Source of the DNA: a phage
Sequence record: PZ324410.1
DNA: 47,561 nt
Reading direction: 5' to 3' (one strand)
Both the position numbers and the translations under genes were made by a program. Of the stretch, positions 1,846 to 46,969 are shown piece after piece (positions within the stretch are counted from its first letter, which is position 1; each line of letters starts with the position of its first letter). Under the pieces are notes generated by a model. It was not told where the DNA came from and searched no databases. It saw only the letters and a list, made by a program, of their open reading frames with translations.

Positions 1846-1874
1846 AATCTACATCACCACCATTTCTACGTCAA
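1846..1874 (-). promoter_or_regulatory. sigma70-like promoter, TTGACG-N17-TAGATT on minus strand
   Basis: hexamers with 17-nt spacer read on reverse complement; lies upstream of minus small-gene pair; built from two copies of the atctac repeat. Confidence 0.4.
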
Positions 1875-1972
1875 TATTTATTATTAATGTTGATAAACCT
1901 GCATCACCACACTTGACCAATCTACACCGAGCGCATAGTATAATCTACATCAGGCTTATCGGAGATATCACT

Positions 1973-2179
1973 ATGCGTAGCTATGCAGGATTTACACAGG
2001 AGGAAAAAGAGCAGGTTTATTCACTGGCACGGGCTGGTGTGCCTGATGAGGTGATTTGCCGTCGATATGACATCGACGAGGATTTCCTGCTGCGCGTTCT
2101 GGATGATGTTTTCGTTAACCTGCAAGAGAAACGCGGTTACAAGGGTATCTGCTGCAAGAATGATTTTTTGAGAGGGTGA
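1973..2179 (+). CDS. hypothetical protein
   Basis: ORF-track ORF 1913..2179 trimmed to first ATG (MRSYAGF...); first gene of a coupled string of small ORFs. Confidence 0.5.
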   Translation: MRSYAGFTQEEKEQVYSLARAGVPDEVICRRYDIDEDFLLRVLDDVFVNLQEKRGYKGICCKNDFLRG

Positions 2180-4424: not shown

Positions 4425-5358
4425 TGCAAGGCTACCCCAACCGCGCATATCGCAGAGTCTGACCGACCCGTTAGGTGCTGCAACCCGACTGTCGAAGATG
4501 GATAAGGTGATAACGCGCAAATACAAACAACTCAGGACTAGTGCGCTTGAGTTGTTTCGCACCATTCCGCATACTCAGACTAACGCAGAATCAAGTGGCC
4601 TGTATTTCTACGATTTCAGTAGTGCGCGTGCTGCTACGTTCATGGATGAGCTACAAGCGCTGATTGACGAGATTCTGCTGGAAGGTGACGACTTCGGTCA
4701 CGGCAGGATGTGGGCTAATGTGTTCATTGGTGATGCATATCAGGCCGGAACGCAGAAGGCCAACTCAGAACTATCAAGTCTGTCTCCGGTTTACGCCGAA
4801 CAGAGGCCGATTGCCGCGATACTCTACAGTGAGCCATATCTGAATCGGCTGCGGCTTGCGTATACGGCTGGTTACTCGGACTGGCGTGGGTTGAGCGATT
4901 ATTCCCGTCAACAACTGGCATCTGTCATTATGGAAGGCATTGCCCGGGGTGCTAATCCTCGCGATGTTGAGGCTGACATCATTAAGCGTGTCGATGTGTC
5001 TCACAGCTACGCGAAACAGATAGCGCAGACTGAAATCACCGGAACGCTGCGACAGGCTAACAGGCGGGAAGTCATTGAGGCGCGCGAGGAATTGGGAATT
5101 GAAACGGTGATGCTGTGGCAATCGGCATTATTACCTGGTCGAACGAGATTTACTCACGCGGCACGGCACGGGCGGTTTTACACGCCAGAGGAGATTGATA
5201 CGTTCTATAGTGAAGTTGCTAATCGCAGGAATTGTCATTGCTCTCAGAGTCCAGCATTGCTAATGGACGGTAAGCCTGTAATTTTGGAATCAAGCCAAGA
5301 GCGTCTAGATAGGCAAAGGGAATCATGGGAAAAGGTAAACAAGAAGAAAGCTAAATGA
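4405..5358 (+). CDS. head morphogenesis protein (Mu F / SPP1 gp7-like minor head protein)
   Basis: ORF 4324..5358; start set to ATG at 4405 overlapping portal end; start uncertain (alternative ATG 4498). Confidence 0.6.
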
Positions 5359-5364
5359 TATAAT
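5356..5364 (+). promoter_or_regulatory. extended -10 promoter element TGaTATAAT
   Basis: exact TGnTATAAT upstream of HNH gene, followed by hairpin gcccgg...ccgggc. Confidence 0.35.
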
Positions 5365-5455
5365 TTACTTGCAGCAAAGGGTAGCTCCCTGCCCGGATTG
5401 GTCTCCGGGCTGCTGCATACAACCAACAGACCATCCTTATGACCGAGGAGTAAAA

Positions 5456-7645: not shown

Positions 7646-7676
7646 ACCAAAACCCTCACTCGTTATTGATGTAGAT

Positions 7677-7705
7677 ACTATGCGCGACAATCCAATCTAC
7701 GTCAA
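7677..7705 (-). promoter_or_regulatory. sigma70-like promoter TTGACG-N17-CATAGT on minus strand
   Basis: read on reverse complement; -35 inside atctacgtcaa repeat. Confidence 0.4.
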
Positions 7706-7713
7706 TAGCTATG

Positions 7714-7722
7714 TGATAAAAT
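7714..7722 (+). promoter_or_regulatory. extended -10-like element TGaTAAAAT upstream of lysis cassette
   Basis: TGnTAnnnT-type element about 25 nt before endolysin ATG. Confidence 0.3.
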
Positions 7723-7745
7723 AATCTACATCAGGAGGTGAATTC

Positions 7746-9759: not shown

Positions 9760-10301
9760 TATTTGATCTCTCCATTCAATTCATCTGCGATAAGTTTTGA
9801 GTAACCAGCGATATCCTTCCAGTTATCATCGTATGCCGGGTCGCCATTCAGGATGCGACCGATTTTGTGCTGAATCATGTCCAGCGCTTCGCGTTGGCTA
9901 TCAGTTAATCGTGACCATCCATCAGTATTGTGCATCACTCCTTTTAGTGAGCGCATGATTTTAGCGCCATCAGCGAATTTACCGTAACGATTGCCACGCT
10001 CATTGACCAGTGATTCGATATCAACTTTCGTCGGGTCGTATTTGACCACCTCGACATCTGCGGCGGTAACTGGTTCGCGTTGGGCGATAATCTCATAACG
10101 ATAACCTTCATTAAATGCAACGCCGTCACGGTTTTCGTCGCCAATATCGCAAACATGGATCCGTCTACCAACGACGCCGACAAATGAATGCTTGCTAGTC
10201 CATTCCCCTTTAATTCTCCTTGTTACCCAATCCGGCGCGCCTTCAAAATCCCTCTCACTGCCTTTCAGGTATTTCCATGCTTTCTTGCATTCACTCATCA
10301 C
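9759..10301 (-). CDS. hypothetical protein (180 aa)
   Basis: long ORF in coupled minus operon; family not recognised by eye. Confidence 0.55.
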   Translation of the reverse strand: MMSECKKAWKYLKGSERDFEGAPDWVTRRIKGEWTSKHSFVGVVGRRIHVCDIGDENRDGVAFNEGYRYEIIAQREPVTAADVEVVKYDPTKVDIESLVNERGNRYGKFADGAKIMRSLKGVMHNTDGWSRLTDSQREALDMIQHKIGRILNGDPAYDDNWKDIAGYSKLIADELNGEIK

Positions 10302-10498
10302 TCACCTCTTAATGTCACTTTATTGTTTTCGTCAACGTTAAAATTAGCCCTGATGTACTCATACATCTCTTCTTTGCTCATATCAGCAAGCTCGACATAG
10401 CATCGCGCAAAGTAACGCACATCACGCAGACTAAGAGGCTGTCTTTTCTTCACGATTGCTGTCACTACTTCACTCTTCTCTCGGCGCGGTCTTGGCAT
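10298..10498 (-). CDS. hypothetical protein
   Basis: 66-aa basic N-terminus; first gene of minus operon next to repeat-bearing intergenic region. Confidence 0.5.
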   Translation of the reverse strand: MPRPRREKSEVVTAIVKKRQPLSLRDVRYFARCYVELADMSKEEMYEYIRANFNVDENNKVTLRGE

Positions 10499-10595
10499 TT
10501 CTTACTCTCCTTTAGAAAACATCTTGACTTAATCTACGTCAATCGTCAATACTTGTTGATGTAGATTGTATCACAAAGAAAAGAGGTGATGTGGA

Positions 10596-12912: not shown

Positions 12913-13035
12913 ATGTTCATAACTCAAATCATATTCTTCCTTTCACTTTCTGCCATCTATCCTTCCATTCTGTATCCTCTCGCCACGCTGTCGTGGTGCT
13001 TTATTGCTCTGTGGTATAATTCCGACACGAGCTAA
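12913..13035 (+). CDS. small membrane peptide
   Basis: 40-aa hand-called ORF with strong GGAGGTG RBS. Confidence 0.3.
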   Translation: MFITQIIFFLSLSAIYPSILYPLATLSWCFIALWYNSDTS

Positions 13036-16860: not shown

Positions 16861-17222
16861 AGGACCAACCACTTAGCTGGAATGATGTATCGAACTTCCG
16901 ATTCTGTTAAACCTAAGTCCATGCATATACTATCCACACTTTTCTGTGCAGGGTAATTTCGAGAGAAGTAGTTCCCCATCCACTCTCTAAGGCCTGTAAA
17001 GCATGGTATGTCATCGAAATCTGAGATGTCAGATGCAGCATTGAATGCCTTACTACATATCAAGCATTGTTTATAGGAAAACGCATCTCTTTCCGATGAT
17101 ACTCCTGATGAATACTTATATTTATCTCCTTTGTGTATTTCTCTTCCACACTCGCAGCATTTATGGCTCTTGATAGCTTTTCTTTCTATTTGTCTGAAAG
17201 CAAGTGGCTGTTCACCCATCAC
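16857..17222 (-). CDS. zinc-ribbon protein
   Basis: CCECG and CLIC Cys pairs in 121-aa ORF. Confidence 0.5.
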   Translation of the reverse strand: MMGEQPLAFRQIERKAIKSHKCCECGREIHKGDKYKYSSGVSSERDAFSYKQCLICSKAFNAASDISDFDDIPCFTGLREWMGNYFSRNYPAQKSVDSICMDLGLTESEVRYIIPAKWLVL

Positions 17223-18028
17223 ATCTTCTCCAGAATTGCCATGACCTCGTGAATATCAGCAACAGGAATCTGGATAAATTCCTCATCCTCTGCCACCACA
17301 TGACCAGCAGGGAGAATCACATGGTCAGCTGGCTTCAATAACTCAATCAGGCGGTCTACTGGCTTAATCTTTTTCGACTTCAGCACCTTTGCTGTGACTT
17401 TGTCCTTGCCTTGCGCCCTCGCTTCTTCTACCGCCTCGTCGATAACTTTTACTGCATCATCTCCATGTTCGCGCGTTACCGCTACGGCATTTGCATAGCT
17501 GATTTGTCCTGCACTGATGCGCGCTTTTACTTCCGCTGGAACATCACCCAGCGACAGATGCATTTGCACGTCAGATACTGAGCGGCCTACCTTTTTGGCA
17601 ATTTCTTCATTCGTCCAGCCAAAACCCTTCAGTCGCGTGTAAGCCTTTGCGCGTTCAAACGGGTCGAGTTGCTTGCCCTGACTGGATGACACCATGAAGG
17701 CGATTTTGTCAGCCTCGTCGCCAGTGAAATCCTTGCACTCAATGCGAACGATTGGTGCTCCGCGCTCAATGGCACGCAATGCGCCGAGATAGCGGTGCTG
17801 ACCATCAAGAATGCGGATTCCCTTCTCATCTGGAATAACTGTTAATGCTGGCAGTGGCTGTCCTGATTCCCAGCACTGCGCGAAATATTCAACGTGTTGC
17901 TCATCTGCTTCACGGATGTTATATCCAGGCTCCAGATAGATTTGCTCCACTGGCACGAGATAGGTTTTGTTCACAGCGATTCCGTTGCGCGTTTCTTTGT
18001 CTGAATAGATTTTGCTTAGTGTTTTCAT
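17219..18028 (-). CDS. ParB-like nuclease domain protein
   Basis: LDGQHRY-type ParB N-terminal motif plus predicted HTH segment (EEIAKKVGRSVSDV). Confidence 0.6.
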   Translation of the reverse strand: MKTLSKIYSDKETRNGIAVNKTYLVPVEQIYLEPGYNIREADEQHVEYFAQCWESGQPLPALTVIPDEKGIRILDGQHRYLGALRAIERGAPIVRIECKDFTGDEADKIAFMVSSSQGKQLDPFERAKAYTRLKGFGWTNEEIAKKVGRSVSDVQMHLSLGDVPAEVKARISAGQISYANAVAVTREHGDDAVKVIDEAVEEARAQGKDKVTAKVLKSKKIKPVDRLIELLKPADHVILPAGHVVAEDEEFIQIPVADIHEVMAILEKM

Positions 18029-19032: not shown

Positions 19033-19073
19033 CTTCATCACCTCTAACATTTATTGTTGTTTCTACGTCACTA

Positions 19074-19102
19074 ACTATAAACACCTCATCAATCTACGTC
19101 AA
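19074..19102 (-). promoter_or_regulatory. sigma70-like promoter TTGACG-N17-TATAGT on minus strand
   Basis: hexamers with 17-nt spacer on reverse complement; -35 lies in atctacgtcaa repeat. Confidence 0.45.
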
Positions 19103-19149
19103 CTGGAATATGCTAAAATTATGCTAATCAAACAACAGGAGATTTAAAC

Positions 19150-21537: not shown

Positions 21538-21614
21538 TGGTGGACACGGACGGATTTGAACCTTCAATCAGCCGATTATGAGTCGGTTGCTTTAACCAAT
21601 TAAGCTACGCGTCC
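21538..21614 (-). tRNA. tRNA with CAU anticodon (Met or Ile2), CCA encoded
   Basis: hand-folded on minus strand: 7-bp acceptor stem GGACGCG/CGTGTCC, D-arm GCTT-AATTGGTTA-AAGC, anticodon loop CUCAUAA, T-loop GGTTCAAATCC; one mismatch each in anticodon and T stems. Confidence 0.6.
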
Positions 21615-22021
21615 ATAAGTGCTGGTTTAAGCATTGCCAGCGTGCTTTCTTAACACCCAGCCCCGTAACCCATACATACCCCTACATATGATTGCGATAA
21701 TGCTGGATGTTAAGTGTTGTGGTGTCCGGTGCTATCCCGGACTGCATTCGTCGCCATGGTGAGCCTTTACCTCACCATCTAGCTCATTCACCTCAACGGA
21801 AAGAGCACTGGAACTTGGGCTGGGTATTACCGCATGTCTTTCAACTTCGAACCAAGGCTGACATTACCCAATGCTCTTACCTGTTGTGTGCCGGTTACGC
21901 GTCCGGCGTCTCTCGACCGCTAATTGTAATTGAAGGATTGGCTGTAATTAAATGAAATCAGGGAACCAATCGCTGTTAATTCCAAATCTACACCACAAAA
22001 TAATCACTGTCAACTATGATG
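21615..22021. other. about 400-bp non-coding region with several perfect hairpins
   Basis: gtccgg-N7-ccggac (21723..21741), atggtgag-N7-ctcaccat (21755..21777), gccgg-ttacgcgt-ccggc; only a weak plus ORF, none on minus. Confidence 0.35.
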
Positions 22022-22687
22022 TTAAATCAAGCCTTCGTCAGTTAGCTTGCCGATAATCCACATCTCTCCTTCAGCATAAAACATAGCTTGTGAGTGCCCT
22101 GTTTCTGTCTCGCGCATAATGCCGTATCCTTTGTCGATGAACCATTGCTGGAAGACTCGTCCACGCTTAACAGAGCGATTGTACACATCGAATTGCTCAA
22201 GCTGTCTGTTTAGCCATACTGCTGACTGTCCAAACTTCTGTGCAACCTGTGTTGCATTGTAAAGATTGTTTCGCTCAACGATGCGATCATAGACATCTGC
22301 TTTTGGTGCCATCTCCTTGTTTTCAAGCGCAAGCTTCTCTTTCTCTTTCTCTGAGGCAAGTAATGCCTCCAGTGCTTCAATATAGTTTTGCGGAAGATTT
22401 GGCTTGCTAACCTGCGATTCCAGTTCTTGCCATCGTCTAATGATGGCAGCGCGCATTTTGATGCTATATCCTGACACCAGAATTAATGTTTCCTCCTTAT
22501 CCAAAAGAAGCATTTGATACGTGCGCCCTCTGCTGTCTTTGTAATCTCCTAACTTTTCAGGAGATTGAATTTCAGCTAACATTTTTCGTATGTCAGCCAA
22601 AACATTGTCATGCCGTTTCCCTGTCAACTCCGAAATCTCACGGCTTGACATGGTTTGCACTTTACCAACATTCATTAATGCGTTCAT
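22022..22687 (-). CDS. Rha/ORF6N-type phage regulatory protein with KilA-C-like C-terminal domain (antirepressor-like)
   Basis: N-terminal SSREISELTGKRHDNVLADIRKM motif; coiled-coil linker; C-terminal KilAC-like segment. Confidence 0.55.
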   Translation of the reverse strand: MNALMNVGKVQTMSSREISELTGKRHDNVLADIRKMLAEIQSPEKLGDYKDSRGRTYQMLLLDKEETLILVSGYSIKMRAAIIRRWQELESQVSKPNLPQNYIEALEALLASEKEKEKLALENKEMAPKADVYDRIVERNNLYNATQVAQKFGQSAVWLNRQLEQFDVYNRSVKRGRVFQQWFIDKGYGIMRETETGHSQAMFYAEGEMWIIGKLTDEGLI

Positions 22688-22826
22688 GATTTCCTCCTTT
22701 GTTTAACTCCATTATCTACATCAACACAAACTCATCAAATCAATCTGCTTATCGTGACAAGCAAGGTTGCTTATACTGCTGTGATATAATCACCACGTTA
22801 GCAGCTAACACAATTCGGAGATCGAA

Positions 22827-23930: not shown

Positions 23931-24203
23931 TCACCAGCACAATGCTATGAGCATAAAAACACAGAGTGCGTAAGGAACAATTGTGTTATTAGTTAGCGGT
24001 TGCTCGCCAAAGCATAGAATCCACCCCCCGACGCCAACCCCATCAATGGTCAAGCTATCAGGATGTGCTAGCTTTGGTAATTCCCCATCGAATCTGTATC
24101 CACATCCATATGCGTCAATCACAACGCCATTTCTGCTATCTACTACACACCCATCATTAAAGTGACCACAAATTTTCCAATTAATTTCTGTATCTGTCAT
24201 CAT
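23931..24203 (-). CDS. hypothetical protein
   Basis: 90-aa ORF downstream of repeat-bearing promoter region. Confidence 0.4.
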   Translation of the reverse strand: MMTDTEINWKICGHFNDGCVVDSRNGVVIDAYGCGYRFDGELPKLAHPDSLTIDGVGVGGWILCFGEQPLTNNTIVPYALCVFMLIALCW

Positions 24204-24274
24204 AAACGCCTCAATCTACATCAGCATAATGTTAATCTACACCACGGCGGCGCAACCTGTCAAATGATTGTGAG

Positions 24275-24757
24275 TTACTTTTTGCCGTGGTTTTCATGAA
24301 AGTTATAATAAATTTCTGCATTTTTTCTAGCTCTCCCTGCATCATTGATATCACTAAAAAAACCCAATGAAATCTCTTTCTTGTTAACTGATATTCTCGC
24401 CCTCCACTTCCCCATTCTTTTGGACCAGCTAACGCCAACAATACCACTTGTGTTATCTATCCTTTTTGAAAGATTTACACTGTTTTCTTGCCTGCTTACA
24501 ATCCTCAGGTTTTCAATTCTGTTATCCAGCCTGTCATGGTTAATGTGATCAATCTCCATACCGTCAGGTATTGGGCCGTTATGCATTTCCCATATAACTC
24601 TATGCACAAGCTGCGTTTTGCCAAACAAGCTAACCTGCAAATAACCATCTGGTCGAACAGTTCCTGCATTATGACCAGCCATGGCATTTGAAGACCTCCT
24701 TGCTTTCCATTTCAAGGCACCACAATCATATTCAAAAATATCATCCAAAATATTCAT
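24275..24757 (-). CDS. HNH homing endonuclease (HNH + AP2-like)
   Basis: LVHRVIWEMHNGPIPDGMEIDHINHDRLDNRIENLR and GIVGVSW motifs; paralog of 46263..46766. Confidence 0.7.
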   Translation of the reverse strand: MNILDDIFEYDCGALKWKARRSSNAMAGHNAGTVRPDGYLQVSLFGKTQLVHRVIWEMHNGPIPDGMEIDHINHDRLDNRIENLRIVSRQENSVNLSKRIDNTSGIVGVSWSKRMGKWRARISVNKKEISLGFFSDINDAGRARKNAEIYYNFHENHGKK

Positions 24758-24834
24758 CTTAAAACCACCAATCAAGACAATTAAGATACAAATCTACATC
24801 ATATCTACACCATCATCAATTGGTTTTCTCTCTA

Positions 24835-24843
24835 ATGATATAA
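24835..24843 (+). promoter_or_regulatory. extended -10 promoter TGaTATAAT
   Basis: exact TGnTATAAT about 28 nt upstream of tail chaperone ATG, preceded by two atctac repeats. Confidence 0.4.
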
Positions 24844-24870
24844 TGACTCATTGCAAGATAGAGGCTTGTT

Positions 24871-28426: not shown

Positions 28427-32548
<4,122 letters not shown>

Positions 32549-34542: not shown

Positions 34543-34968
34543 CTAATTTTGTTTTGGATAATTCTTCGATCTCCAGTCGTTAAAAGCCATCATTGCTGCT
34601 TCCCATCCTAGCGCTACACACACTGTGCATCCGGCATTTAAAGATGCGGAAAGGTAATCAATCTGGCCTTCCTCCCAATCGCTAAGAGTGTGGTCTTTCC
34701 TCTTCATCTCAATAACAAGAGATGGATTTCCAGGGATTATTATATCTGACGCACCTTTATTTAAAGCGCCTTTCTTTTTTAGGTTGCTGACCTCATGTGC
34801 TTTTCTCTTTCCTTCGTTTGGAATGTGAAGCACCAGCCGACCAAAACTATCAGGATACATTTTCCTCAATTGATTTATAAAAGTTACAAGCTCAGCGTCT
34901 TCAACATGACACTTCTTGTCTCTGTATGTTTTATCTCCATATACCTTTAGCCATTCAGGAAAAATCAT
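34543..34968 (-). CDS. VRR-NUC domain nuclease
   Basis: PD-(D/E)xK-like core DIIIPG...VIEMKRK in 141-aa ORF trimmed to ATG 34968. Confidence 0.5.
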   Translation of the reverse strand: MIFPEWLKVYGDKTYRDKKCHVEDAELVTFINQLRKMYPDSFGRLVLHIPNEGKRKAHEVSNLKKKGALNKGASDIIIPGNPSLVIEMKRKDHTLSDWEEGQIDYLSASLNAGCTVCVALGWEAAMMAFNDWRSKNYPKQN

Positions 34969-36830
34969 AATACCCCCCAATACATGCCTTTAACGTTGAA
35001 ATATTTACTACCCTTATCTCTTCTGAACATAATCACTGATGGCGAGACAGCCTCATCTCTTTTAGATATTGCATCATCAATTGACATGTTATGTTCACCA
35101 AAGCACTTCTCACAAAATTCTTCCCACTCCTTCTTCATCCATTCCTTCTCAGAGTTTGGATTGTAGAACTTGCTAACAAAAAATGGTTTCTGTTCAATAG
35201 CAAATTTTACGTGCACCAAATCTTCACCGCTTGAAACGTAATGCTTCATGATGTTCATCATGGTTACACTTGATTGCTTGGTTGCATAAGGAGAAGAATC
35301 AAGCCTGTCAGCTTCTTCCTTTAGTTTTTGGTTGGGGTCAATAATTTCAGCTCCGCATGATGTGCAATTTCTTGCTGCTATATCATTTTCAAACCCACAA
35401 TCTGGACACTCCTTTACCGACCATTTATAAGTACACCTATGCATTTCCCTTAGTGGTCCATGCATAACGTAGTTTTTACACCGCCTACCAAAATGAGCAG
35501 GCATGGGCTTGCTTCCAATCTTTTCACCTGACTTATCAAAAATATCAATCATTACTCTGTCACCCGCCAAATCCAGCCAGTAACCTTCCTTGTCAACTTC
35601 AAGATTTTCAGGATTTGGGCGCACACCAAATTCATTAATAAAGCCACAAAGAGGGCATTTGACATCCATTGGCACGGATGGTTTTTTCCTTGTTGCTTTT
35701 ATTTCTGGAGTGAACAAGTCCCCGGTCTCAGAAAAGTGACGTTGAATATTGCCTGCGTAATCGCTGACAAGAAAGTCTTCCTTGCCTTCATAAAGACGCG
35801 TCCCCCTGCCAATTATTTGCTGGTATAGTCTTGGTGATTCTGTGGCTCTCATTACTGCTATGTGATCACAATGAGGAACATCCACCCCTACAGTAAGGAT
35901 ATTCTGATTGACGATGTATTTAACTTTTTGCGCCTTGAAGTCTGATATTGCCTTATTGCGTTCAGCTGTCGGCATATCACCAAAAACATAACTATAAGAA
36001 CCGGGAGGCAGTGACTCCATTATCTCCATAGCGTGTTTCTTTGTGCTGGCAAAAATCATCGTTCCGAGACGATTAACGGAGCGACGGATAATATCTTCAA
36101 CAATACGTGATGTCTTCCTTCCCTTGCCAACCATCGCCTTTTCAACTGAAGATGTTGTGTACCGACCCAACTTATCCTTTTCAAGACAAGACGTATCATA
36201 CTCGTCAAAAACAGGCTCTGTAACTGGCGGCGTAAGGTATCCGTTTTCAATGAGGAATTTCGCCTCAAGCTCATAAACGACTTTGTCGTAATATGGGTCT
36301 ATGGCTGTTTCTTCATCTGTAGGACCGTCGAGGTAATGCTCTTTGTAGATGTATCCAGTTCCAAGGCGATAAGGCGTAGCGGTCATTCCAATAACACGCA
36401 GTTTTGGATTGCGACGCTTCATTTCATTAATAATAAATTTAATGGTTGGTGTTATTCCATCGCACTCATCAATAATGACAGCACCATACTTATCACCAAA
36501 CATCTCTATTGAGTTCTTGATTGTAACTGGTGAACCAAACACCACCGGATGACGCAGGTTTTTTGGGCCAGCCTTTGCACTGAACATGCTGGCTGGTTCT
36601 CCGGTGAGAAGATATTTAGCGCGATTTTGTGTGACGAGTTCCGCCGTGGGAGCAATGCACAAAACTCGCTTTTTGCTCATGCCATAAATACGAGATGCAA
36701 GTTCTGCTACAACCATAGATTTTCCTGCACCTGTAGGTAGGATGATAACGCATGATGAGATTGTGCTGCGAATGTGTGCCATAGCTGAATCAACAGCTTC
36801 CTGTTGGTATGGCCTTAGTGTGTATTTCAT
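34965..36830 (-). CDS. SF2 DEAD/DEAH-box DNA helicase with C-terminal zinc fingers
   Basis: Walker A PTGAGKS, DECD box, MTATP motif, QIIGRGTR motif VI; Cys pairs near C-terminus. Confidence 0.8.
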   Translation of the reverse strand: MKYTLRPYQQEAVDSAMAHIRSTISSCVIILPTGAGKSMVVAELASRIYGMSKKRVLCIAPTAELVTQNRAKYLLTGEPASMFSAKAGPKNLRHPVVFGSPVTIKNSIEMFGDKYGAVIIDECDGITPTIKFIINEMKRRNPKLRVIGMTATPYRLGTGYIYKEHYLDGPTDEETAIDPYYDKVVYELEAKFLIENGYLTPPVTEPVFDEYDTSCLEKDKLGRYTTSSVEKAMVGKGRKTSRIVEDIIRRSVNRLGTMIFASTKKHAMEIMESLPPGSYSYVFGDMPTAERNKAISDFKAQKVKYIVNQNILTVGVDVPHCDHIAVMRATESPRLYQQIIGRGTRLYEGKEDFLVSDYAGNIQRHFSETGDLFTPEIKATRKKPSVPMDVKCPLCGFINEFGVRPNPENLEVDKEGYWLDLAGDRVMIDIFDKSGEKIGSKPMPAHFGRRCKNYVMHGPLREMHRCTYKWSVKECPDCGFENDIAARNCTSCGAEIIDPNQKLKEEADRLDSSPYATKQSSVTMMNIMKHYVSSGEDLVHVKFAIEQKPFFVSKFYNPNSEKEWMKKEWEEFCEKCFGEHNMSIDDAISKRDEAVSPSVIMFRRDKGSKYFNVKGMYWGVL

Positions 36831-37204
36831 AAGTCAAACTCCTTGCACCACTCGACAACATGCTCGCACTGCTTAACATCAAACATTCCTATGTGACACT
36901 TCTCTTTTCTTATTCCCATCGAACTAGCTAATGCAGAATAAGCAGAGCCTCTTGACATTTTTCCTGATTTCCATAAGGGATCAAATGCAGCATGGGCTTT
37001 GCTTTTTGCCTTTCTTAATTCTTCATTTGCCACACGCCCAAGAGGTCTTTTCCCATCACCATTTTTGTGGCAACCAACATAAGCACCACAAGAATCACAT
37101 AGATAAAAATTAAGAGACGAAAGGTCTGGTCTGTGTGGGTAAATTTCACTCCCTTTAGCTAGTCTTGTCGCAATATTGCAGTAATCACAGATAACTTCGT
37201 ACAT
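36827..37204 (-). CDS. zinc-finger protein
   Basis: CDYC and CDSC Cys pairs; ORF trimmed to ATG 37204 with GGGGG RBS. Confidence 0.5.
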   Translation of the reverse strand: MYEVICDYCNIATRLAKGSEIYPHRPDLSSLNFYLCDSCGAYVGCHKNGDGKRPLGRVANEELRKAKSKAHAAFDPLWKSGKMSRGSAYSALASSMGIRKEKCHIGMFDVKQCEHVVEWCKEFDL

Positions 37205-37261
37205 ATAAACCCCCAATTAAAAGCCCCTTAGCGGGGCTTTATTTAAATAAACATCAAGTCA

Positions 37262-37783
37262 TTAAAACGGCACGTCAGAGTCAAAGTCCATCGGAGGCTC
37301 GTTAGATGGCGCTGATTGCTTAGGAGCAGGCGCTGATTTTGTTTGTTGACGACTGAAAACACCAGCCACATAGTTACCAGTTTTTTGCTTATCCTCAGAT
37401 TCCCAAACGCGCAGAAGAAGGATCATCGGGCGATTAGCAAGCGCACTAGCAATAGCAAAATCAGTCGGCTCTTTCCCTGACGCCATCAGCTTGCCACCAG
37501 CGTTTGCGTCAATTGCTGCAAGCATAGTGATAGCATTGTCGCGCTGCTTTTCTTTTGAGCTAAATACTTTCAGCTTCTGGAAGATGATGCGATTTTTATA
37601 CTCACCATCAAGGATTCTCCACTTAAGATTGAAGAATCGCTCACCTTCCCACTGATCGTCTTTACACTCTTCAACGGCAGCAAGAACACGGCTGCCATCA
37701 GGAATTACTTCGAAACCACCACCCAGCTCAAATTCAGATTTAGATTCAACAGCTTTACCGTCAGAAAGATTCCAGAAACCCAT
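37262..37783 (-). CDS. putative ssDNA-binding protein with SSB-like acidic C-terminal tip
   Basis: C-terminus MDFDSDVPF resembles bacterial SSB tip DFDDDIPF; sits beside Gp157 and AAA_24 genes. Confidence 0.5.
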   Translation of the reverse strand: MGFWNLSDGKAVESKSEFELGGGFEVIPDGSRVLAAVEECKDDQWEGERFFNLKWRILDGEYKNRIIFQKLKVFSSKEKQRDNAITMLAAIDANAGGKLMASGKEPTDFAIASALANRPMILLLRVWESEDKQKTGNYVAGVFSRQQTKSAPAPKQSAPSNEPPMDFDSDVPF

Positions 37784-37800
37784 TTTTGTGTCCTCTCGAT

Positions 37801-38280
37801 TTATTTGATGATCAGTTTTGGCTTGCCATCTGTAATGGCACAACCCTTAATCTCAATCCCGGCTTTTATCGCATTTTTAATTGCTGCGTTATCTGCCGAC
37901 ACTTTCACAACGCGGTACTGCTCAGGAAGCTGTTCAACAGGGACAAACACATCAAGAACTGGTGATGGTTTTCCAAGCGTGATACTGAACAACTTACCTT
38001 TGATGTTTGTCTTTCCTGACGCCATCATGTTTTGACGAAGATAATCTTTAAGGTTATCAATCTTCGCAACTAAAACACGCTTACGCTCAGAAAGACGGTC
38101 AATCTCTGATTTAAGTCCAGCTTCATCAGCTTCAAGCTCACGAATGTAAGCAGCAACCATTTCAGCCTTTCCTTCAAACTCCTCTTCAATAAGATTGATG
38201 GTATCTTCAATCTGCTCCCGTGGAATATCCTCCATCGCCAGTAGTTCATTAAGCTGTTTGGTTATCTCGTAGAGATGCAT
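37801..38280 (-). CDS. Sipho_Gp157 family protein
   Basis: N-terminal MHLYEITKQLNEL and coiled-coil typical of Gp157; start uncertain. Confidence 0.55.
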   Translation of the reverse strand: MHLYEITKQLNELLAMEDIPREQIEDTINLIEEEFEGKAEMVAAYIRELEADEAGLKSEIDRLSERKRVLVAKIDNLKDYLRQNMMASGKTNIKGKLFSITLGKPSPVLDVFVPVEQLPEQYRVVKVSADNAAIKNAIKAGIEIKGCAITDGKPKLIIK

Positions 38281-39091
38281 AATATTTAATCTCACTCAAA
38301 AGTGGGTTCTCACCTTTTTCAAAAGGAATTTCAGGTTCAAGGTTGTATCTGTTTTTAGCATTAACATACCCAATACGACCATCACCAGAGGTGATAAGAA
38401 CTCGCTGACCAGTCTGAACAACCTTTCCAAACTTGGTGACTTGCCCTTTCTTATCAGTCTCAGTTCCTTTCACAAACTCTTCATTTCTGATGTAAATAAC
38501 AGCATCACTAAGATTCACATAACCAGAAACTGAAGCATCATGCATGTCAAGTGTGTAAACGGTGTATTCATCAGCATCAGGTCGATTCTTCATCTTTTTA
38601 ACACCTGCGTGTGCAAGATAAATAATGCTCATCCCTTTTTCTTTGCGAAGATACTTGCATGCATTTATTATTTCAGCGTGCATTTCAGAAACAACAATAT
38701 ATCCTTTGTTGTAACCACCAGCCGCAGAACCTACGTTGTCAACACCGTAATTTTCACAAACCTCATGCTCAAACATTGAATGCAGGCTTGTGATTGAGTC
38801 AATTACAAGCGTTTTGTAATTATGTTCCTCAGTAATTAATGCGCGTAGCTGTGACAGCAAATCATCCTTTGTGCTTGTTTTGCGTTTAGCGTCAGCGCGA
38901 TTCAGAACAGGAAATGAATCAGGTTTCTTTTCATCATCCCAGTCATCAAAAACACCAGTGATCTCTTCAGCCTGAATAAACACTGGGTTTGGGAATAGCG
39001 CCGCAAGAGTTGTCTTGCCTACACCTGGAGTACCAACCAATGTTATGATTGGTGCTGCTGGTTTTGGTTTTTGAATCATTGATAAGCTCAT
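38249..39091 (-). CDS. AAA_24 family ATPase (Sak4-like)
   Basis: Walker A GTPGVGKTT and Walker B-like VIDSITSL; GAGAGGACA RBS. Confidence 0.7.
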   Translation of the reverse strand: MSLSMIQKPKPAAPIITLVGTPGVGKTTLAALFPNPVFIQAEEITGVFDDWDDEKKPDSFPVLNRADAKRKTSTKDDLLSQLRALITEEHNYKTLVIDSITSLHSMFEHEVCENYGVDNVGSAAGGYNKGYIVVSEMHAEIINACKYLRKEKGMSIIYLAHAGVKKMKNRPDADEYTVYTLDMHDASVSGYVNLSDAVIYIRNEEFVKGTETDKKGQVTKFGKVVQTGQRVLITSGDGRIGYVNAKNRYNLEPEIPFEKGENPLLSEIKYYASLRDNQTA

Positions 39092-39225
39092 AGTGTCCTC
39101 TCGATTTAACTCAGCATATCGCTGGTGTGACTTAAAGATACGTCAACATGATGGTAAACGCAATAGCTTGACGCAAATTTTTTTTGAGTTCATTATTGCT
39201 GCATACAGATAGCAGAGGTAAACAC

Positions 39226-39468
39226 ATGAAAAGCATCGCAGAACAGATAAGAGAAATGGAACAGACGAAGTTGTCGGAGCTGATTGATTATGTTGGAGGG
39301 CAATCACAACTGGCAAGATTTCTTGGTGTGTCAAAACAGGCTGTCAATCAGTGGGTGTCAAGAGGAAGAATTAGTGCTACAGCAGCAATTGATGCCGAGG
39401 CGCTTACTGGTGGAGTTTTCAGAAAGGAAGATTTAAGGCCAGCTGTTACAAAATGGATTGTTAAATAA
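39226..39468 (+). CDS. Cro/YdaS-like HTH DNA-binding protein
   Basis: helix-turn-helix QSQLARFLGVSKQAVNQW; divergent from recombination operon; ORF trimmed to ATG 39226. Confidence 0.6.
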   Translation: MKSIAEQIREMEQTKLSELIDYVGGQSQLARFLGVSKQAVNQWVSRGRISATAAIDAEALTGGVFRKEDLRPAVTKWIVK

Positions 39469-39470
39469 TA

Positions 39471-39497
39471 AAGCCCGCGTTTGCGGGCTTTTTTTAA
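39471..39497. terminator. bidirectional rho-independent terminator
   Basis: aagcccgc gttt gcgggctt hairpin then TTTTTTT. Confidence 0.7.
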
Positions 39498-39889
39498 ACT
39501 CCTTTTGAGCTTAAGCTATCTTTATCACGCCTTCCGCTATACTCTTTGCTTACATCCTCGTACAAAACACCAAACGCCTTACAGAAATTAAATAGTGCGT
39601 CACCCGCAAACACTTCGCTTGGATGCCAGTTTCCGGATTTTCTTGCAACATCCCTGTACGATGCTGTCACTATACCTACATTGTTTTCATATTGTATTCG
39701 ACAAAACAGTACGTCATCATCAATGCAGATACCCATATTGCAGCGGAATACGGGCATTTTCCAGTAGTAAACCTCCATCAGGTGTTTCCCTGTCATCATG
39801 GATATTGCGTTATCATGTGCGCGCTCAGGATTTTCTGACTCAAAATAGTCATACAAACCCCTCATCACCAGATACTTGTAATTGATCAT
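39494..39889 (-). CDS. hypothetical protein
   Basis: 131-aa ORF, overlap-coupled to primase gene. Confidence 0.5.
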   Translation of the reverse strand: MINYKYLVMRGLYDYFESENPERAHDNAISMMTGKHLMEVYYWKMPVFRCNMGICIDDDVLFCRIQYENNVGIVTASYRDVARKSGNWHPSEVFAGDALFNFCKAFGVLYEDVSKEYSGRRDKDSLSSKGV

Positions 39890-42219
39890 ATCTCAACCTC
39901 ATCATTTGTTAATTTATAAATTATTACGTTGTGAGATGTTCTTTTTGCATTTTCATCAATGCAAATAATACCATCTGATAACAACTTCTCTACGCACCTC
40001 TCGACATCAGCACGTTTATACCCACCTTCTTTTGCCACCCCTCTAACCATTGCTGTTTTGGTCATTCCACGCTTCACATATTCTTTAACCATGGAGAAAA
40101 TACCTTCAATTCTTTCTTCCATAGCTTTAGACTTCGCTCCGGCGATACTGTCAGCACGCATCATCAGATCGCTTGTTGATTTAATTGTTAATGCTACCGC
40201 ATATCTCAAGTGCTCCATGGTTATGACACCAGTATCGCACGCAAGAATGCCAGCAATCTTTGCCACTTTTACAGCGCATCTGTTTATCAATGGATGATAA
40301 CCAGTACCGTTTTCTACATGCTTTCTTGCAACGGTTTTAATCCATGAGAAGAACTCCTTAGCGAGCTGAGAAACTTCAGGAGTAGCTTTTATAATCCGTC
40401 TTTCTTTTTGACTGATTATTGAGTCTGTCCAGTTTTTGTGCCCAGCGGTTCCGCCATTTATTATTGTTTTTATGGTCAGTTGCATATCCATTGGCAGATC
40501 GCAGTAGTTGACGTTTTCGTTTTCGTCAGCAATCTCCTGCAACTCCTGCATAATCATTGCGCGCCCCATAAGACCTGACTTAATGTTTTCTTCAGTAATA
40601 AGGCGCTTAAACTGATCATCAGTAGACACGCCAAAGATTGAAAAAAATGGATTCCTTATAGCTCCATCAATTCTGTTTATCACATCATCAAACTGACACT
40701 TAATGTCAACAGGGTCTGCCTGTATCTCATTTTCCTCAATAGCCATCAACAGCATAGCCTTTCTCTTTTCGAAAGACTTAATGAAATCCTCAGTAACCCG
40801 CTGGTCACAATAAAGAACTTCTGACGTGTAAGCCTCCATGATCGCACCAGCGGTTGCCATGTTGTACTCGCTTACTTTCTGACCAACAACACTACCAAGT
40901 TTTATCCCAATCTCATCCATGATGATATTAAACATCTGGTTAGCACAAAGACCTTCATATATCGCACGCTCTGAACGTATCTTACCGGCGACAGTCTTAC
41001 TCAATCCTGAGCAATCAATTATCTTTTGTAGCGCAGCAAGAACATCACCCTTACCTGAACCTGAACCAGCGATACCAACAGCAAAAAGGTTTGGCAAAGC
41101 CTTCCTGTTTGTAAGGTAAATATCAGATGACGCTCCGCAAATCATGGATGCGGCATGCAATGCGGCAAGTGCTGCAATGTTCTCTCGCTTCTCTGCACAG
41201 TTCTTATTAATCCACGCCGTAAGGCGACCAACAAATCCAGGCGGATAACGGACATCAACACTTTTGTACTCTACAGGGCATTCACCAACACCCATTGCCA
41301 TCTCTCGCTCGAAAGACTCAAGTTTCTCAATTTCCTCTGGAGTAGCCTCAAAAGTTACTTGCCTTACCCACCCTCCCTCTTGCGCGAGATAAACCAGCGT
41401 TGCTTCGGTTATCTTTTCGCTAACACCGTCCTTTCCAAAGGAATGCCATTTTGCGTCCATCTCTTCAGCTCTGTACTTGCTGAACTGCGATGACCACCTA
41501 TCCCAAAGCTCAAAACCATTGCCTTCTGTAGCTTCGTGGATAGCCATACCTACATGAAGCCATGGGTCATACTCATCACCATCTTTGATGTATTTGAGCA
41601 TATCCTCCATTTCGGAAATGCTGTAATTTTTACTATCAAGCGTGAAAACCTCGTCTTCCGTTCTCTCAGGACGCAACAAAAGCTCAATAAGTTCAGATGG
41701 ACATTCAGTTATCTCTGAAGGGGATCCATGCTCGGCCTCATAAAAGTTTCCAGTTTTATGAAAAGAACCACATCCAACAACAAAACCAGAGGATTTAAAG
41801 TCAATACCCTTAAACCTTCTGTCATGAGAGCGCAGCTTTATTCCTTCAGGAAGTTTGTAATAGATGTGGCGACCACCACCACCAGTCTTAACCGTAAAAC
41901 CAGCTTCGTCAGCAAGCTCTACGTCTAAGGCATCACAAAGCGATTCATATCCATCATTACCTCCGTTGCGTGGATCAATATCAACGACCAGATAACCATT
42001 CACAAGGACACCGAATGACTGCAGTTGACCATATTCAGCCATATTTTCAATCTGGTCATCAGCCCATATAACTCCAAGCTGCCAGTTACTCATAACCGGA
42101 TGCTTACCGGCAGCATTGCAATCTGGATCACCGCATGTGCAATTGCGGTCGATATCCATTGCATGGATTCCAATAATAGGGAAGCCACATTTGCGGTAAT
42201 CTTCATAACCAATCATCAT
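39886..42219 (-). CDS. DNA primase/helicase (Prim-Pol N-terminal domain plus P-loop NTPase)
   Basis: N-terminal Prim-Pol-like region with acidic DIDPRNGG motif; Walker A GIAGSGSGKG in central region. Confidence 0.7.
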   Translation of the reverse strand: MMIGYEDYRKCGFPIIGIHAMDIDRNCTCGDPDCNAAGKHPVMSNWQLGVIWADDQIENMAEYGQLQSFGVLVNGYLVVDIDPRNGGNDGYESLCDALDVELADEAGFTVKTGGGGRHIYYKLPEGIKLRSHDRRFKGIDFKSSGFVVGCGSFHKTGNFYEAEHGSPSEITECPSELIELLLRPERTEDEVFTLDSKNYSISEMEDMLKYIKDGDEYDPWLHVGMAIHEATEGNGFELWDRWSSQFSKYRAEEMDAKWHSFGKDGVSEKITEATLVYLAQEGGWVRQVTFEATPEEIEKLESFEREMAMGVGECPVEYKSVDVRYPPGFVGRLTAWINKNCAEKRENIAALAALHAASMICGASSDIYLTNRKALPNLFAVGIAGSGSGKGDVLAALQKIIDCSGLSKTVAGKIRSERAIYEGLCANQMFNIIMDEIGIKLGSVVGQKVSEYNMATAGAIMEAYTSEVLYCDQRVTEDFIKSFEKRKAMLLMAIEENEIQADPVDIKCQFDDVINRIDGAIRNPFFSIFGVSTDDQFKRLITEENIKSGLMGRAMIMQELQEIADENENVNYCDLPMDMQLTIKTIINGGTAGHKNWTDSIISQKERRIIKATPEVSQLAKEFFSWIKTVARKHVENGTGYHPLINRCAVKVAKIAGILACDTGVITMEHLRYAVALTIKSTSDLMMRADSIAGAKSKAMEERIEGIFSMVKEYVKRGMTKTAMVRGVAKEGGYKRADVERCVEKLLSDGIICIDENAKRTSHNVIIYKLTNDEVEI

Positions 42220-42653
42220 TTAACCCTCACCACATAAGCGGTATTACGTGCAACCATCTTGACACTGAATTTTTTTTGCAGCTTCTTACCAACCACGGAA
42301 AGCGCACTTCTCAACTGCTCAATACTCCTTATCAACGCAAAATCATCAAACACAAAATGCTTTCCCTTACCCAAACCAAGTCGGTAGACGAAGTTGCGAG
42401 CCTCTCCCTCCATTGTCGGTTTTTGCTCCCACACAGACGCGGCCCGTTTTTTTACCCTTTGCTCCTTGCATTTTATTTCACACGGGAGATGCGGCTTCCG
42501 CCACGCCATATACCTCTCAGCCTCCTCTATTGTTTTGAAAAACTTTGCATAGGTAAAATCATGCAGAAAACCACATCTACCGCTGGCATATACCTTTTTA
42601 CCATCAGCCCCAATTGCCTCAATGTAGTACCTTTTCATATCCCAACACCTCAC
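42216..42653 (-). CDS. hypothetical protein
   Basis: 145-aa basic ORF, coupled. Confidence 0.5.
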   Translation of the reverse strand: MRCWDMKRYYIEAIGADGKKVYASGRCGFLHDFTYAKFFKTIEEAERYMAWRKPHLPCEIKCKEQRVKKRAASVWEQKPTMEGEARNFVYRLGLGKGKHFVFDDFALIRSIEQLRSALSVVGKKLQKKFSVKMVARNTAYVVRVK

Positions 42654-42877
42654 TTAATCCGCTTAACCCACAAACCACCCTCCTTAGCTCGTGTTTTAAA
42701 CATCCATCCGTTCCGCACTGCAACCTTATGAAGGTTCACTCTGAATCCCCTTAATCCTTCATTAGCGGTAAACTCATCAAAGTTAAACTCCTTACGATCA
42801 CCAACCAACATATCACGCACGAAATCCCAGACCTCACCAATCGCACTGCCAAATCGGTATTCTTTACTCATCGTCAT
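42650..42877 (-). CDS. hypothetical protein
   Basis: 75-aa ORF, first gene after repeat-rich region. Confidence 0.5.
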   Translation of the reverse strand: MTMSKEYRFGSAIGEVWDFVRDMLVGDRKEFNFDEFTANEGLRGFRVNLHKVAVRNGWMFKTRAKEGGLWVKRIK

Positions 42878-43487: not shown

Positions 43488-43516
43488 TTGACGTAGAATC
43501 ACAACTGATATAGATT
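43488..43516 (+). promoter_or_regulatory. sigma70-like promoter TTGACG-N17-TAGATT
   Basis: hexamers with 17-nt spacer about 30 nt upstream of first plus-strand gene. Confidence 0.5.
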
Positions 43517-43546
43517 GAAATCATCGAAACAAGCGAGGGTGAAGAG

Positions 43547-46939: not shown

Positions 46940-46969
46940 TTAACGCCATGGTGTAGAATCTGTTACAAT
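46940..46969 (+). promoter_or_regulatory. sigma70-like promoter TTAACG-N18-TACAAT upstream of terS
   Basis: hexamers read directly; contains gtagaatc variant of the recurring motif. Confidence 0.35.

Follow-up and report, generated by a model that had tools for sequence, protein, structure and literature searches.

A Dispersed Motif in the Promoter Regions of a Lytic Siphovirus

The sequence analyzed here (record PZ324410.1; 47,561 bases, hereafter "the window") comprises the complete genome of a phage and matches Escherichia phage ECO95 1-6-1 at 100% identity across the 8 kb tested; the subject of this study is a short asymmetric motif, WATCTACRYCA, that recurs in its promoter regions. The phage is a Skatevirus-like lytic small siphovirus, with relatives that include Bas77-79, IME207 (Shuimuvirus), Skate, seszw, Vi II-E1, CF-SP1 (Swiduovirus) and SB28 (Macdonaldcampvirus), as well as the Roufvirus group of Klebsiella phages and pYD38-A. 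With gene positions based on the annotation of these relatives and on tblastn, the + strand holds the structural and lysis genes, and because short blocks of small genes on the - strand break these up, the genome has many divergent intergenic regions. Searches of PLSDB and of complete E. coli genomes found the phage neither as a plasmid nor as a prophage, which fits a lytic lifestyle.

The core form ATCTACRYCA has 14 exact matches in the window where 0.35 would be expected, and none of 100 shuffled sequences reached that number. Since the enrichment of ATCTAC by itself is weak (24 vs. 15 expected), the signal resides in the 10-11-mer. A logo built from 18 sites gives the 11-mer W-A-T-C-T-A-C-R-Y-C-A, which lacks palindromic symmetry and beyond which no flanking base is conserved; on the complementary strand the motif reads TGAYGTAGAT(T). 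The relaxed form WWTCTACRYCR has 19 matches (0.54 expected from Markov simulations), and the non-coding DNA, 7.1% of the genome, holds all 19 of them (binomial P = 1.5e-22), every one in a promoter region. Allowing one mismatch yields 32 matches vs. 9.9 expected and adds a degenerate partner, ATCTATATCA at 43506, paired with the copy at 43489, so that the total comes to about 20. The + strand carries 15 copies and the - strand four or five, and relative to transcription both orientations occur, i.e., there is no stoperator-type co-orientation.

A first-pass annotation of the window had noted this motif at 18 positions in intergenic promoter regions, and both the recurrence and the positions hold: each listed site lies within 0-2 nt of a copy, except that 7735 is really 7724. 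The list was incomplete, since it missed the - strand copy at 46949 upstream of the small terminase gene, and its description of the motif as present at "nearly every intergenic promoter region" was too broad. No ATCTACRYCA copy occurs between 24812 and 43489 (a 19-kb region that takes in the tail operon and the whole replication module), none lies in an intra-operon gap, and the late promoters at 2969, 5356, and 13012 lack one. Literature searches with the motif strings returned unrelated primers only, and the literature on Skatevirus, Shuimuvirus, BASEL and seszw contained nothing on promoters or transcription; we found no earlier description of the motif, or of transcription in this phage clade.

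Motif Copies Within -35/-10 Promoters

Read on the complementary strand, the ACG variant of the motif with a preceding T forms the -35 hexamer TTGACG, while the 3' end of the motif forms the -10 hexamer TAGATT. A consensus scan places TTGACG-17-TAGATT at 1874->1846 and, mirrored, at 43488->43516, and in both promoters each hexamer is supplied by one of two copies 17 bp apart. In the first, which runs leftward, the copy at 1846..1856 (+; AATCTACATCA) provides the -10 on its - strand and the copy at 1863..1873 (+; TTTCTACGTCA) the -35. In the second, which drives the right-end small-gene operon rightward, the copy at 43489..43499 (-; ATTCTACGTCA on that strand) provides the -35 (43488-43493) and its degenerate partner at 43506..43516 (-) the -10 (43511-43516). 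The geometry that the first-pass annotation had described, in which motif copies supply TTGACG or TAGATT hexamers of promoters with 17-nt spacing, is borne out here and at further sites.

Elsewhere a copy supplies one hexamer of the pair. The leftward promoters TTGACG-17-TATAGT (19102->19074) and TTGACG-17-CATAGT (7705->7677) take their -35 from copies at 19091..19101 and 7694..7704 (both + and both AATCTACGTCA), and each of these copies also lies 9 nt upstream of a rightward extended -10 element, TGcTAAAAT (19111-19119) and TGaTAAAAT (7714-7722, lysis genes), respectively. The same two leftward promoters have a further copy behind the -10, at 19060..19070 (+; TTTCTACGTCA), just 3' of TATAGT, and at 7667..7677 (-; TATCTACATCA on that strand), directly after CATAGT. 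The motif supplies the -10 in the leftward TTGACA-17-TAGATT at 22013->21985 (copy 21985..21995, +; AATCTACACCA), in the leftward TTGACA-18-TAGATT at 24263->24234 (copy 24234..24244, +; AATCTACACCA), and in the leftward TTGATG-17-TAGATT of the HNH endonuclease gene 24275-24775(-) (copy 24791..24801, +; AATCTACATCA). The copy at 22713..22723 (+; TATCTACATCA) lies in the promoter TTGATG-16-GATAAT of the Rha/KilAC gene 22022-22687(-). In all, seven to eight motif-bearing sites have at least 9/12 matches to the sigma-70 hexamers with 16-18-nt spacing and face a gene or tRNA, and this geometry is kept in the relatives.

The remaining copies sit beside the hexamers, either close to the -35 within the spacer or between -8 and +5. 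Spacer copies just after the -35 are found at 1919..1929 (+; AATCTACACCG), in the rightward promoter TTGACC(1913-1918)-17-TAGTAT(1936-1941), and at 10531..10541 (+; AATCTACGTCA), in the rightward promoter TTGACT(10524)-18-AATACT(10553); Yersinia phage P400 has copies placed likewise. Near an expected start, directly after or overlapping a -10, are the copies already given at 7667 and 19060 together with three others: 1942..1952 (+; AATCTACATCA), which overlaps the -10 TATAAT (1939-1944) and expected start of the promoter of a gene for a 68-amino-acid (aa) protein; the inverted copy at 10557..10567 (-; TGATGTAGATT on the + strand), just after AATACT; and 7723..7733 (+; AATCTACATCA), immediately past the -10 of the lysis promoter, a copy particular to the window genome and absent in five relatives. 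The copy at 46949..46959 (-; ATTCTACACCA on that strand) occupies the spacer of TTAACG-18-TGtTACAAT upstream of the small terminase gene and is conserved in Skate, CF-SP1 and Klebsiella phage S13b. Copies thus lie within about -35 to +10 of a plausible promoter, with two exceptions: 24802..24812 (+; TATCTACACCA), 11 bp from the 24791 copy and ~30 bp upstream of the tail-operon -10, and 24213..24223 (+; AATCTACATCA), downstream of the promoter 24263->24234 and adjoining the ribosome-binding site of gene 23931-24203(-). Across nine genomes, 67 of the 135 copies donate a TTGACG -35 or a TAGATT -10 with the partner hexamer 16-18 nt away—several of these promoters being perfect TTGACA-17-TAGATT—so the promoter-element role that had been ascribed to the motif applies to about half of the copies, the others being spacer or start-site copies.

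The predicted promoter 22013->21985 faces the tRNA-Met gene (21538-21614, -), ~370 nt downstream, and is followed beyond that gene by a terminator at 21532->21512; its transcript would have a leader of ~370 nt. Relatives have one or two tRNAs (Ile, Met, Arg) in the same place, and a search of the window for known RNA families returned tRNA only. A second recurrent sequence, CATTTATTATT, occurs 12 times with at most one mismatch (1.8 expected), e.g., at 1875, 9229, 19048, 19591, 30863, 38662, and 40455. Its copies at 1875 and 19048 flank motif sites and resemble an A/T-rich upstream element or leader; others are intragenic.

Conservation and Concerted Variation Among Relatives

Eight relatives, which represent five named genera and two unclassified phages, share the motif together with its pairings and spacings: Bas78, IME207, Skate, seszw, CF-SP1, SB28, S13b, and pYD38-A have 12-17 copies each against ~0.9 expected, the distant ones among them having portal proteins 61-70% identical to that of the window. 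The copies are placed orthologously, and the pair spacings of 17, 23, 25, 28, and 31 bp are kept. In five promoter-region alignments (6-8 genomes), identity is 92% in motif columns and 79% in the other columns, with 73 and 37% of columns, respectively, invariant (P = 6e-13, from columns that are not independent), and the stretches between copies, i.e., the promoter spacers, are the most variable parts. Beyond the hexamers themselves, TAGAT after TTGACG and TGAYG before TAGATT are invariant, while the R and Y positions are free in copies that donate no hexamer and fixed as ACG where the copy forms a -35. Because bases outside the hexamers are conserved while the spacer drifts, these patterns argue for a reader other than sigma-70. 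The earlier proposal of a common regulator superimposed on early promoters gains sequence-level support from these bases; the regulator is one that we infer from them, and the site is not at every promoter.

More distant relatives keep the core of the motif and change its flank. Phage P400 (portal 53% identical) has four canonical matches, a chance-level number, all intragenic and none intergenic, and carries ATCTACC[CT] at nine intergenic places (4708, 6664, 6698, 13368, 13621, 23926, 39807, 39857, and 43924). In L054, a metagenomic relative of 24 kb, four promoter regions hold ATCTACTA, with five copies in all; one short contig (L052) has the inverted pair CCGGTAGAT/AACTACCGG, and ATCTACAACC together with TTCTACTACG is found on a short contig. 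In phage T1 there are three loose 8-mer matches only. Searched in IMG/VR, the paired-motif promoter was found almost only on contigs of 38-49 kb (and one of 21 kb) and in no new genomic context, and the motif is confined to one phage clade. That the ATCTAC core is kept while the 3' flank has changed at all sites together points to a co-evolving trans-acting reader. In P400 the leader TCATCGAAAC follows several TAGATT sites, and it also follows the window promoter, at 43511-43530; this leader was rejected, being recurrent in P400 with a single occurrence in the window.

These comparisons bear on the simplest alternative, namely that the motif has no separate reader and is the sigma-70 promoter flavor of this lineage, spread as a portable cassette and kept for promoter strength. 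Half of the copies do donate a hexamer, TAGATT recurs as a -10 even in distant lineages, and inserted genes carry copies along with them. But some copies, in either orientation, fall on spacers or start sites, which sigma-70 does not contact base-specifically; outside each hexamer five bases stay invariant although the remaining spacer drifts; and one 10-mer cannot be explained as both -35 context and -10 context. Promoter strength alone is, moreover, hard to reconcile with a flank that changes in concert across a genome, as at all sites of P400 and L054, and we consider this explanation unlikely.

A Second Promoter Class at the Late Genes

A different element marks the late genes. The extended -10 sequence TGnTAWAAT occurs ten times in the window, nine of them on the + strand, and seven of these copies, together with a TGtTACAAT, sit directly 5' of late gene blocks: the portal (2969-2977), the open reading frame (ORF) at 5369 (5356-5364), the lysis genes, the scaffold and capsid (13012-13020), the head-tail genes (19111-19119, above), the major tail (22782-22790), the tail operon (24836-24844), and, with TGtTACAAT, the small terminase gene (46961-46969). 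None of these late-block promoters has a -35, and the + strand bias and the positions recur in all relatives. The -10 of the putative portal promoter, TGcTATAAT, overlaps the 5' arm of a terminator hairpin at 2975-2996, such that transcripts from upstream would terminate there and transcripts begun at the portal promoter would lack the full hairpin.

The lack of a -35 invites comparison with an activator box, in which a motif-bound phage factor—of the kind of T4 MotA/AsiA—would stand in for the -35 contact at these rightward promoters. Exactly 12 bp separate the end of the motif from the downstream -10 at the lysis and head-tail promoters, its center lying near -30, and this spacing is kept across genera. 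At the other late promoters, however, there is no fixed distance, the gap being 5, 6, or 22-32 bp and the motif center lying at about -22, -40, -44, or -50, and no ATCTAC copy is near the portal, 5356, and scaffold promoters. Nor is the orientation of the motif relative to transcription fixed; the constant feature is its overlap with the hexamers of the leftward promoter. An activator role is thus quite unlikely in our estimation. Because three late promoters lack the motif and its distance varies at the others, we assign it to the -35-dependent class: it marks -35-dependent, presumably early, promoters, and the late promoters presumably do no more than share divergent regions with it.

Inserted Cassettes and Other Regions

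Two insertions have occurred at motif-bearing regions. The Rha/KilAC "antirepressor" gene (22022-22687, -) is inserted in what was ancestrally the major-tail promoter region, exactly between its leftward -35 and its rightward extended -10, and the cassette (22022-22826) has its own motif-bearing promoter; SB28 has a related antirepressor at the same spot. The HNH-AP2 homing endonuclease gene (24275-24775, -) splits the tail-operon promoter region (24204-24870), with a motif pair on either side. From their sequence context, new cassettes appear to arrive equipped with the motif, the Rha/KilAC and HNH genes bringing or duplicating motif-bearing promoters.

Two other regions deserve mention. The motif-free replication module (34543-42877) encodes SSB, a helicase, Gam, Sak4, a primase-polymerase, and an 80-aa Cro/YdaS-like helix-turn-helix (HTH) protein (39226-39468), and is of the Klebsiella S13b/Yersinia P400 type, not the Skate/Bas78 type, with the primase segment inverted relative to S13b. 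Relatives encode the large tail protein in one gene of ~2.5 kb, which in the window is divided into two overlapping ORFs (29935-31383 and 31244-32548), by a frameshift or a sequencing error in the assembly.

Candidate Readers of the Motif

Two small non-structural proteins are candidates for the reader. The first, of 68 aa (phrog_13301; 1973..2179, +), has a putative resolvase-type HTH and is encoded by the first gene behind a two-copy promoter; the second, of 66 aa (phrog_14963; 10298..10498, -), has a winged-helix-like model and is encoded by the first gene of the leftward operon of the 10499-10595 region. Both are conserved in all seven motif-bearing relatives compared, and P400 and L054 have divergent homologs. 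Each gene is the first behind a motif-bearing promoter in all lineages examined, P400, L050, L051, L052, and L054 among them. A viable seszw mutant, 300L.2 (36.7 kb, 20% of the genome lost), retains all 13 motif copies and both candidate genes; Lar-like, RusA, DUF7540, and many other small genes are among its losses.

While the 68-aa protein has no direct Pfam match, its family profile reaches tandem HTH_7/HTH_23/CENP-B_N proteins (E = 1.3e-10 to 1e-5), and its AlphaFold2 model (predicted local distance difference test score, pLDDT, 84) has an N-terminal three-helix unit whose nearest PDB neighbors are HTH domains (CENP-B, NarL, ArdK, Tn3 resolvase, and IstA), at a non-significant E > 0.4. The model of the 66-aa protein (pLDDT 78) resembles winged-helix domains (FOXN1, Rok, histone H1), again non-significantly, and PDB sequence searches with both candidate families returned nothing significant. 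We favor neither candidate, and the reader may be another protein or a host factor. Two other DNA-binding proteins of the window, the Rha/KilAC protein and the 80-aa Cro/YdaS-like protein, were rejected as readers because they are not conserved among motif-bearing phages.

A Proposed Dispersed Operator and Its Alternatives

The pattern described above is solid, and from it we infer a function. We think it rather probable, though well short of assured, that WATCTACRYCA is a dispersed operator, probably the site of a small phage-encoded DNA-binding protein that would serve as repressor or timer of early-type promoters. The motif is embedded in the core of the -35-dependent sigma-70 promoters from which most blocks of small, presumably early, genes would be transcribed. 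An early phage protein, monomeric or loosely paired on the 11-mer, would occlude the -35, the -10 or the start site of these promoters, its own included; because the copies overlap the -35, the -10, the adjoining spacer or the start site, an occupied site would exclude RNA polymerase. Such occlusion could bring about a coordinated shut-off of early transcription together with its autoregulation. The extended -10 late promoters often stand back to back with a motif-bearing leftward promoter, and at these pairs silencing of the leftward promoter could free the rightward late one.

Several points weigh against this reading. Literature searches on the clade found no report of binding, transcription starts or timing, and the phage appears strictly lytic, which makes it hard to see what a genome-wide repressor would be for. 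Nor is the motif needed in the replication module or at three late promoters, which lack it. The promoters are consensus matches only, from a scan that overall was not enriched over shuffles, and part of the conservation is accounted for by the promoter hexamers themselves and by conserved leaders. As for the candidate readers, the fold matches of both are not significant alone (Foldseek E > 0.2), and their co-occurrence with the motif could reflect mere shared ancestry.

Beyond the two alternatives weighed above, a conserved host protein of the Enterobacteriaceae (a nucleoid or transcription factor) might bind the sites and be exploited by the phage, as could be supposed from a motif common to phages of E. 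coli, Salmonella, and Klebsiella. A host factor would not readily explain, however, why the flank differs between related phages (RYCA, CC, TA) or why the motif is limited to one phage clade, and we know of no E. coli factor with this consensus; we regard the idea as very unlikely. Equally improbable to us is a non-transcriptional role, in which the copies would be strand-specific nick sites (as in T5 or tf), recombination linkers for exchanging modules, or relics of an operator system that has lost its repressor. The 15:4 strand bias toward the + strand and the insertion of gene cassettes beside copies could be taken in this sense, and there is a precedent in mycobacteriophage D29, which is reported to retain stoperators without a repressor (PMC5712189). 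Yet the strand bias matches the direction in which the leftward promoters run, with the right-end operon as the mirror arrangement, and relics would not be expected to show purifying selection across five genera together with a concerted flank change.

Barely credible, finally, is a reading of the copies as parS/OB-like sites of the ParB/KorB-like protein (17219-18028, -) acting as a KorB-type global regulator, because, for all the HTH_ParB and KorB domains of that protein, its extreme conservation, its absence from P400 and its retention in reduced seszw mutants, SB28 has lost the gene down to a 44-residue remnant and still carries 15 motif copies at the usual places, and the motif is asymmetric, unlike the parS/OB palindromes. 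In its own right, this protein is the most conserved non-structural protein of the phage (99-100% identity in Bas78, IME207, and Skate; 80-86% in distant genera); its gene is kept in all reduced seszw mutants and was naturally deleted, along with RusA, in SB28.

The dispersed-operator reading can be carried one step further, to a proposal that we put forward tentatively and think on balance unlikely: that the ATCTAC word, together with one or two very small DNA-binding proteins, makes up a "promoter code" whose parts co-evolve within a large family of virulent enterobacterial siphoviruses. If so, the variants RYCA, CC, and TA would act like immunity groups, any cassette carrying the word would join the timing program of the phage, and a phage already resident in the cell, or one that co-infects it, could shut down early transcription of a rival with the same code—repressor-based exclusion without lysogeny.

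Skatevirus-like phages are common biocontrol candidates (against Salmonella, E. coli, and Klebsiella) and are represented in the BASEL collection. For these phages the present analysis offers a directly testable regulatory map, with ~20 operator-like sites, promoters of two classes, and two candidate regulators that are each shorter than 70 residues. Its confirmation would also provide a compact and portable set of co-regulated promoters for phage engineering.

Comparison With Known Regulatory Systems

By analogy, the closest counterparts of the system proposed here appear to be found in cluster A mycobacteriophages, with their operators and stoperators, in P1, with its dispersed C1 operators, and in plasmids such as R388 and RK2, with their global repressors. 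Cluster A repressor sites (L5 gp71, TipsytheTRex) are short and asymmetric, occur in more than 20 dispersed copies at promoters and in short intergenic gaps, and are read by a monomer (PMC9283540). The window motif is likewise short, asymmetric and dispersed, with its ~20 copies in promoter regions. The L5 site contains a -35-like TTGACA on one strand; the window copies, unlike L5 sites, double as -10 hexamers too. L5 also differs in being temperate, with a known two-domain repressor of 183 residues, and in having sites that are co-oriented with transcription and block elongation inside operons as well, whereas the window sites are confined to promoters and occur in both orientations.

In P1, the C1 repressor recognizes an asymmetric 17-bp operator that is scattered over many transcription units, often overlaps the -35 or -10, and is sometimes paired. 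P1 is, however, temperate, C1 has 283 aa, and the 11-bp window sites bear no sequence relation to its 17-bp operators. The predicted reader of the window system is probably tiny. In plasmid networks, ArdK, StbA, and KorA of R388, KorA and KorB of RK2, and omega of pSM19035 are small autoregulated repressors that bind short direct or inverted repeats in most promoters of their replicons and are encoded first in their operons. ArdK bound to a direct-repeat element is a structural neighbor of the 68-aa protein of the window, at a non-significant score. Their replicons are plasmids, while the window is the genome of a virulent phage, and a KorB-like route is contradicted by SB28.

T4 middle promoters combine a MotA box at -30, which replaces the -35, with an AsiA-remodeled sigma-70. 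At two late promoters the window motif resembles such a box in lying ~12 bp upstream of the -10, but unlike in T4 this distance is not kept at the other late promoters, three of which have no box, and no MotA or AsiA homolog was found among the 20 small window proteins scanned. Protein p4 of phi29 (A2b/A2c-A3) and Cro and CI of lambda (PR-PRM) offer a precedent of another kind, in which one protein silences an early promoter and favors the opposing one; those switches act at a single locus, whereas the arrangement in the window is repeated at six or more. If the dispersed-operator reading is confirmed, a strictly lytic coliphage would be seen to carry a genome-wide asymmetric operator, of a kind so far known from temperate phages and plasmids.

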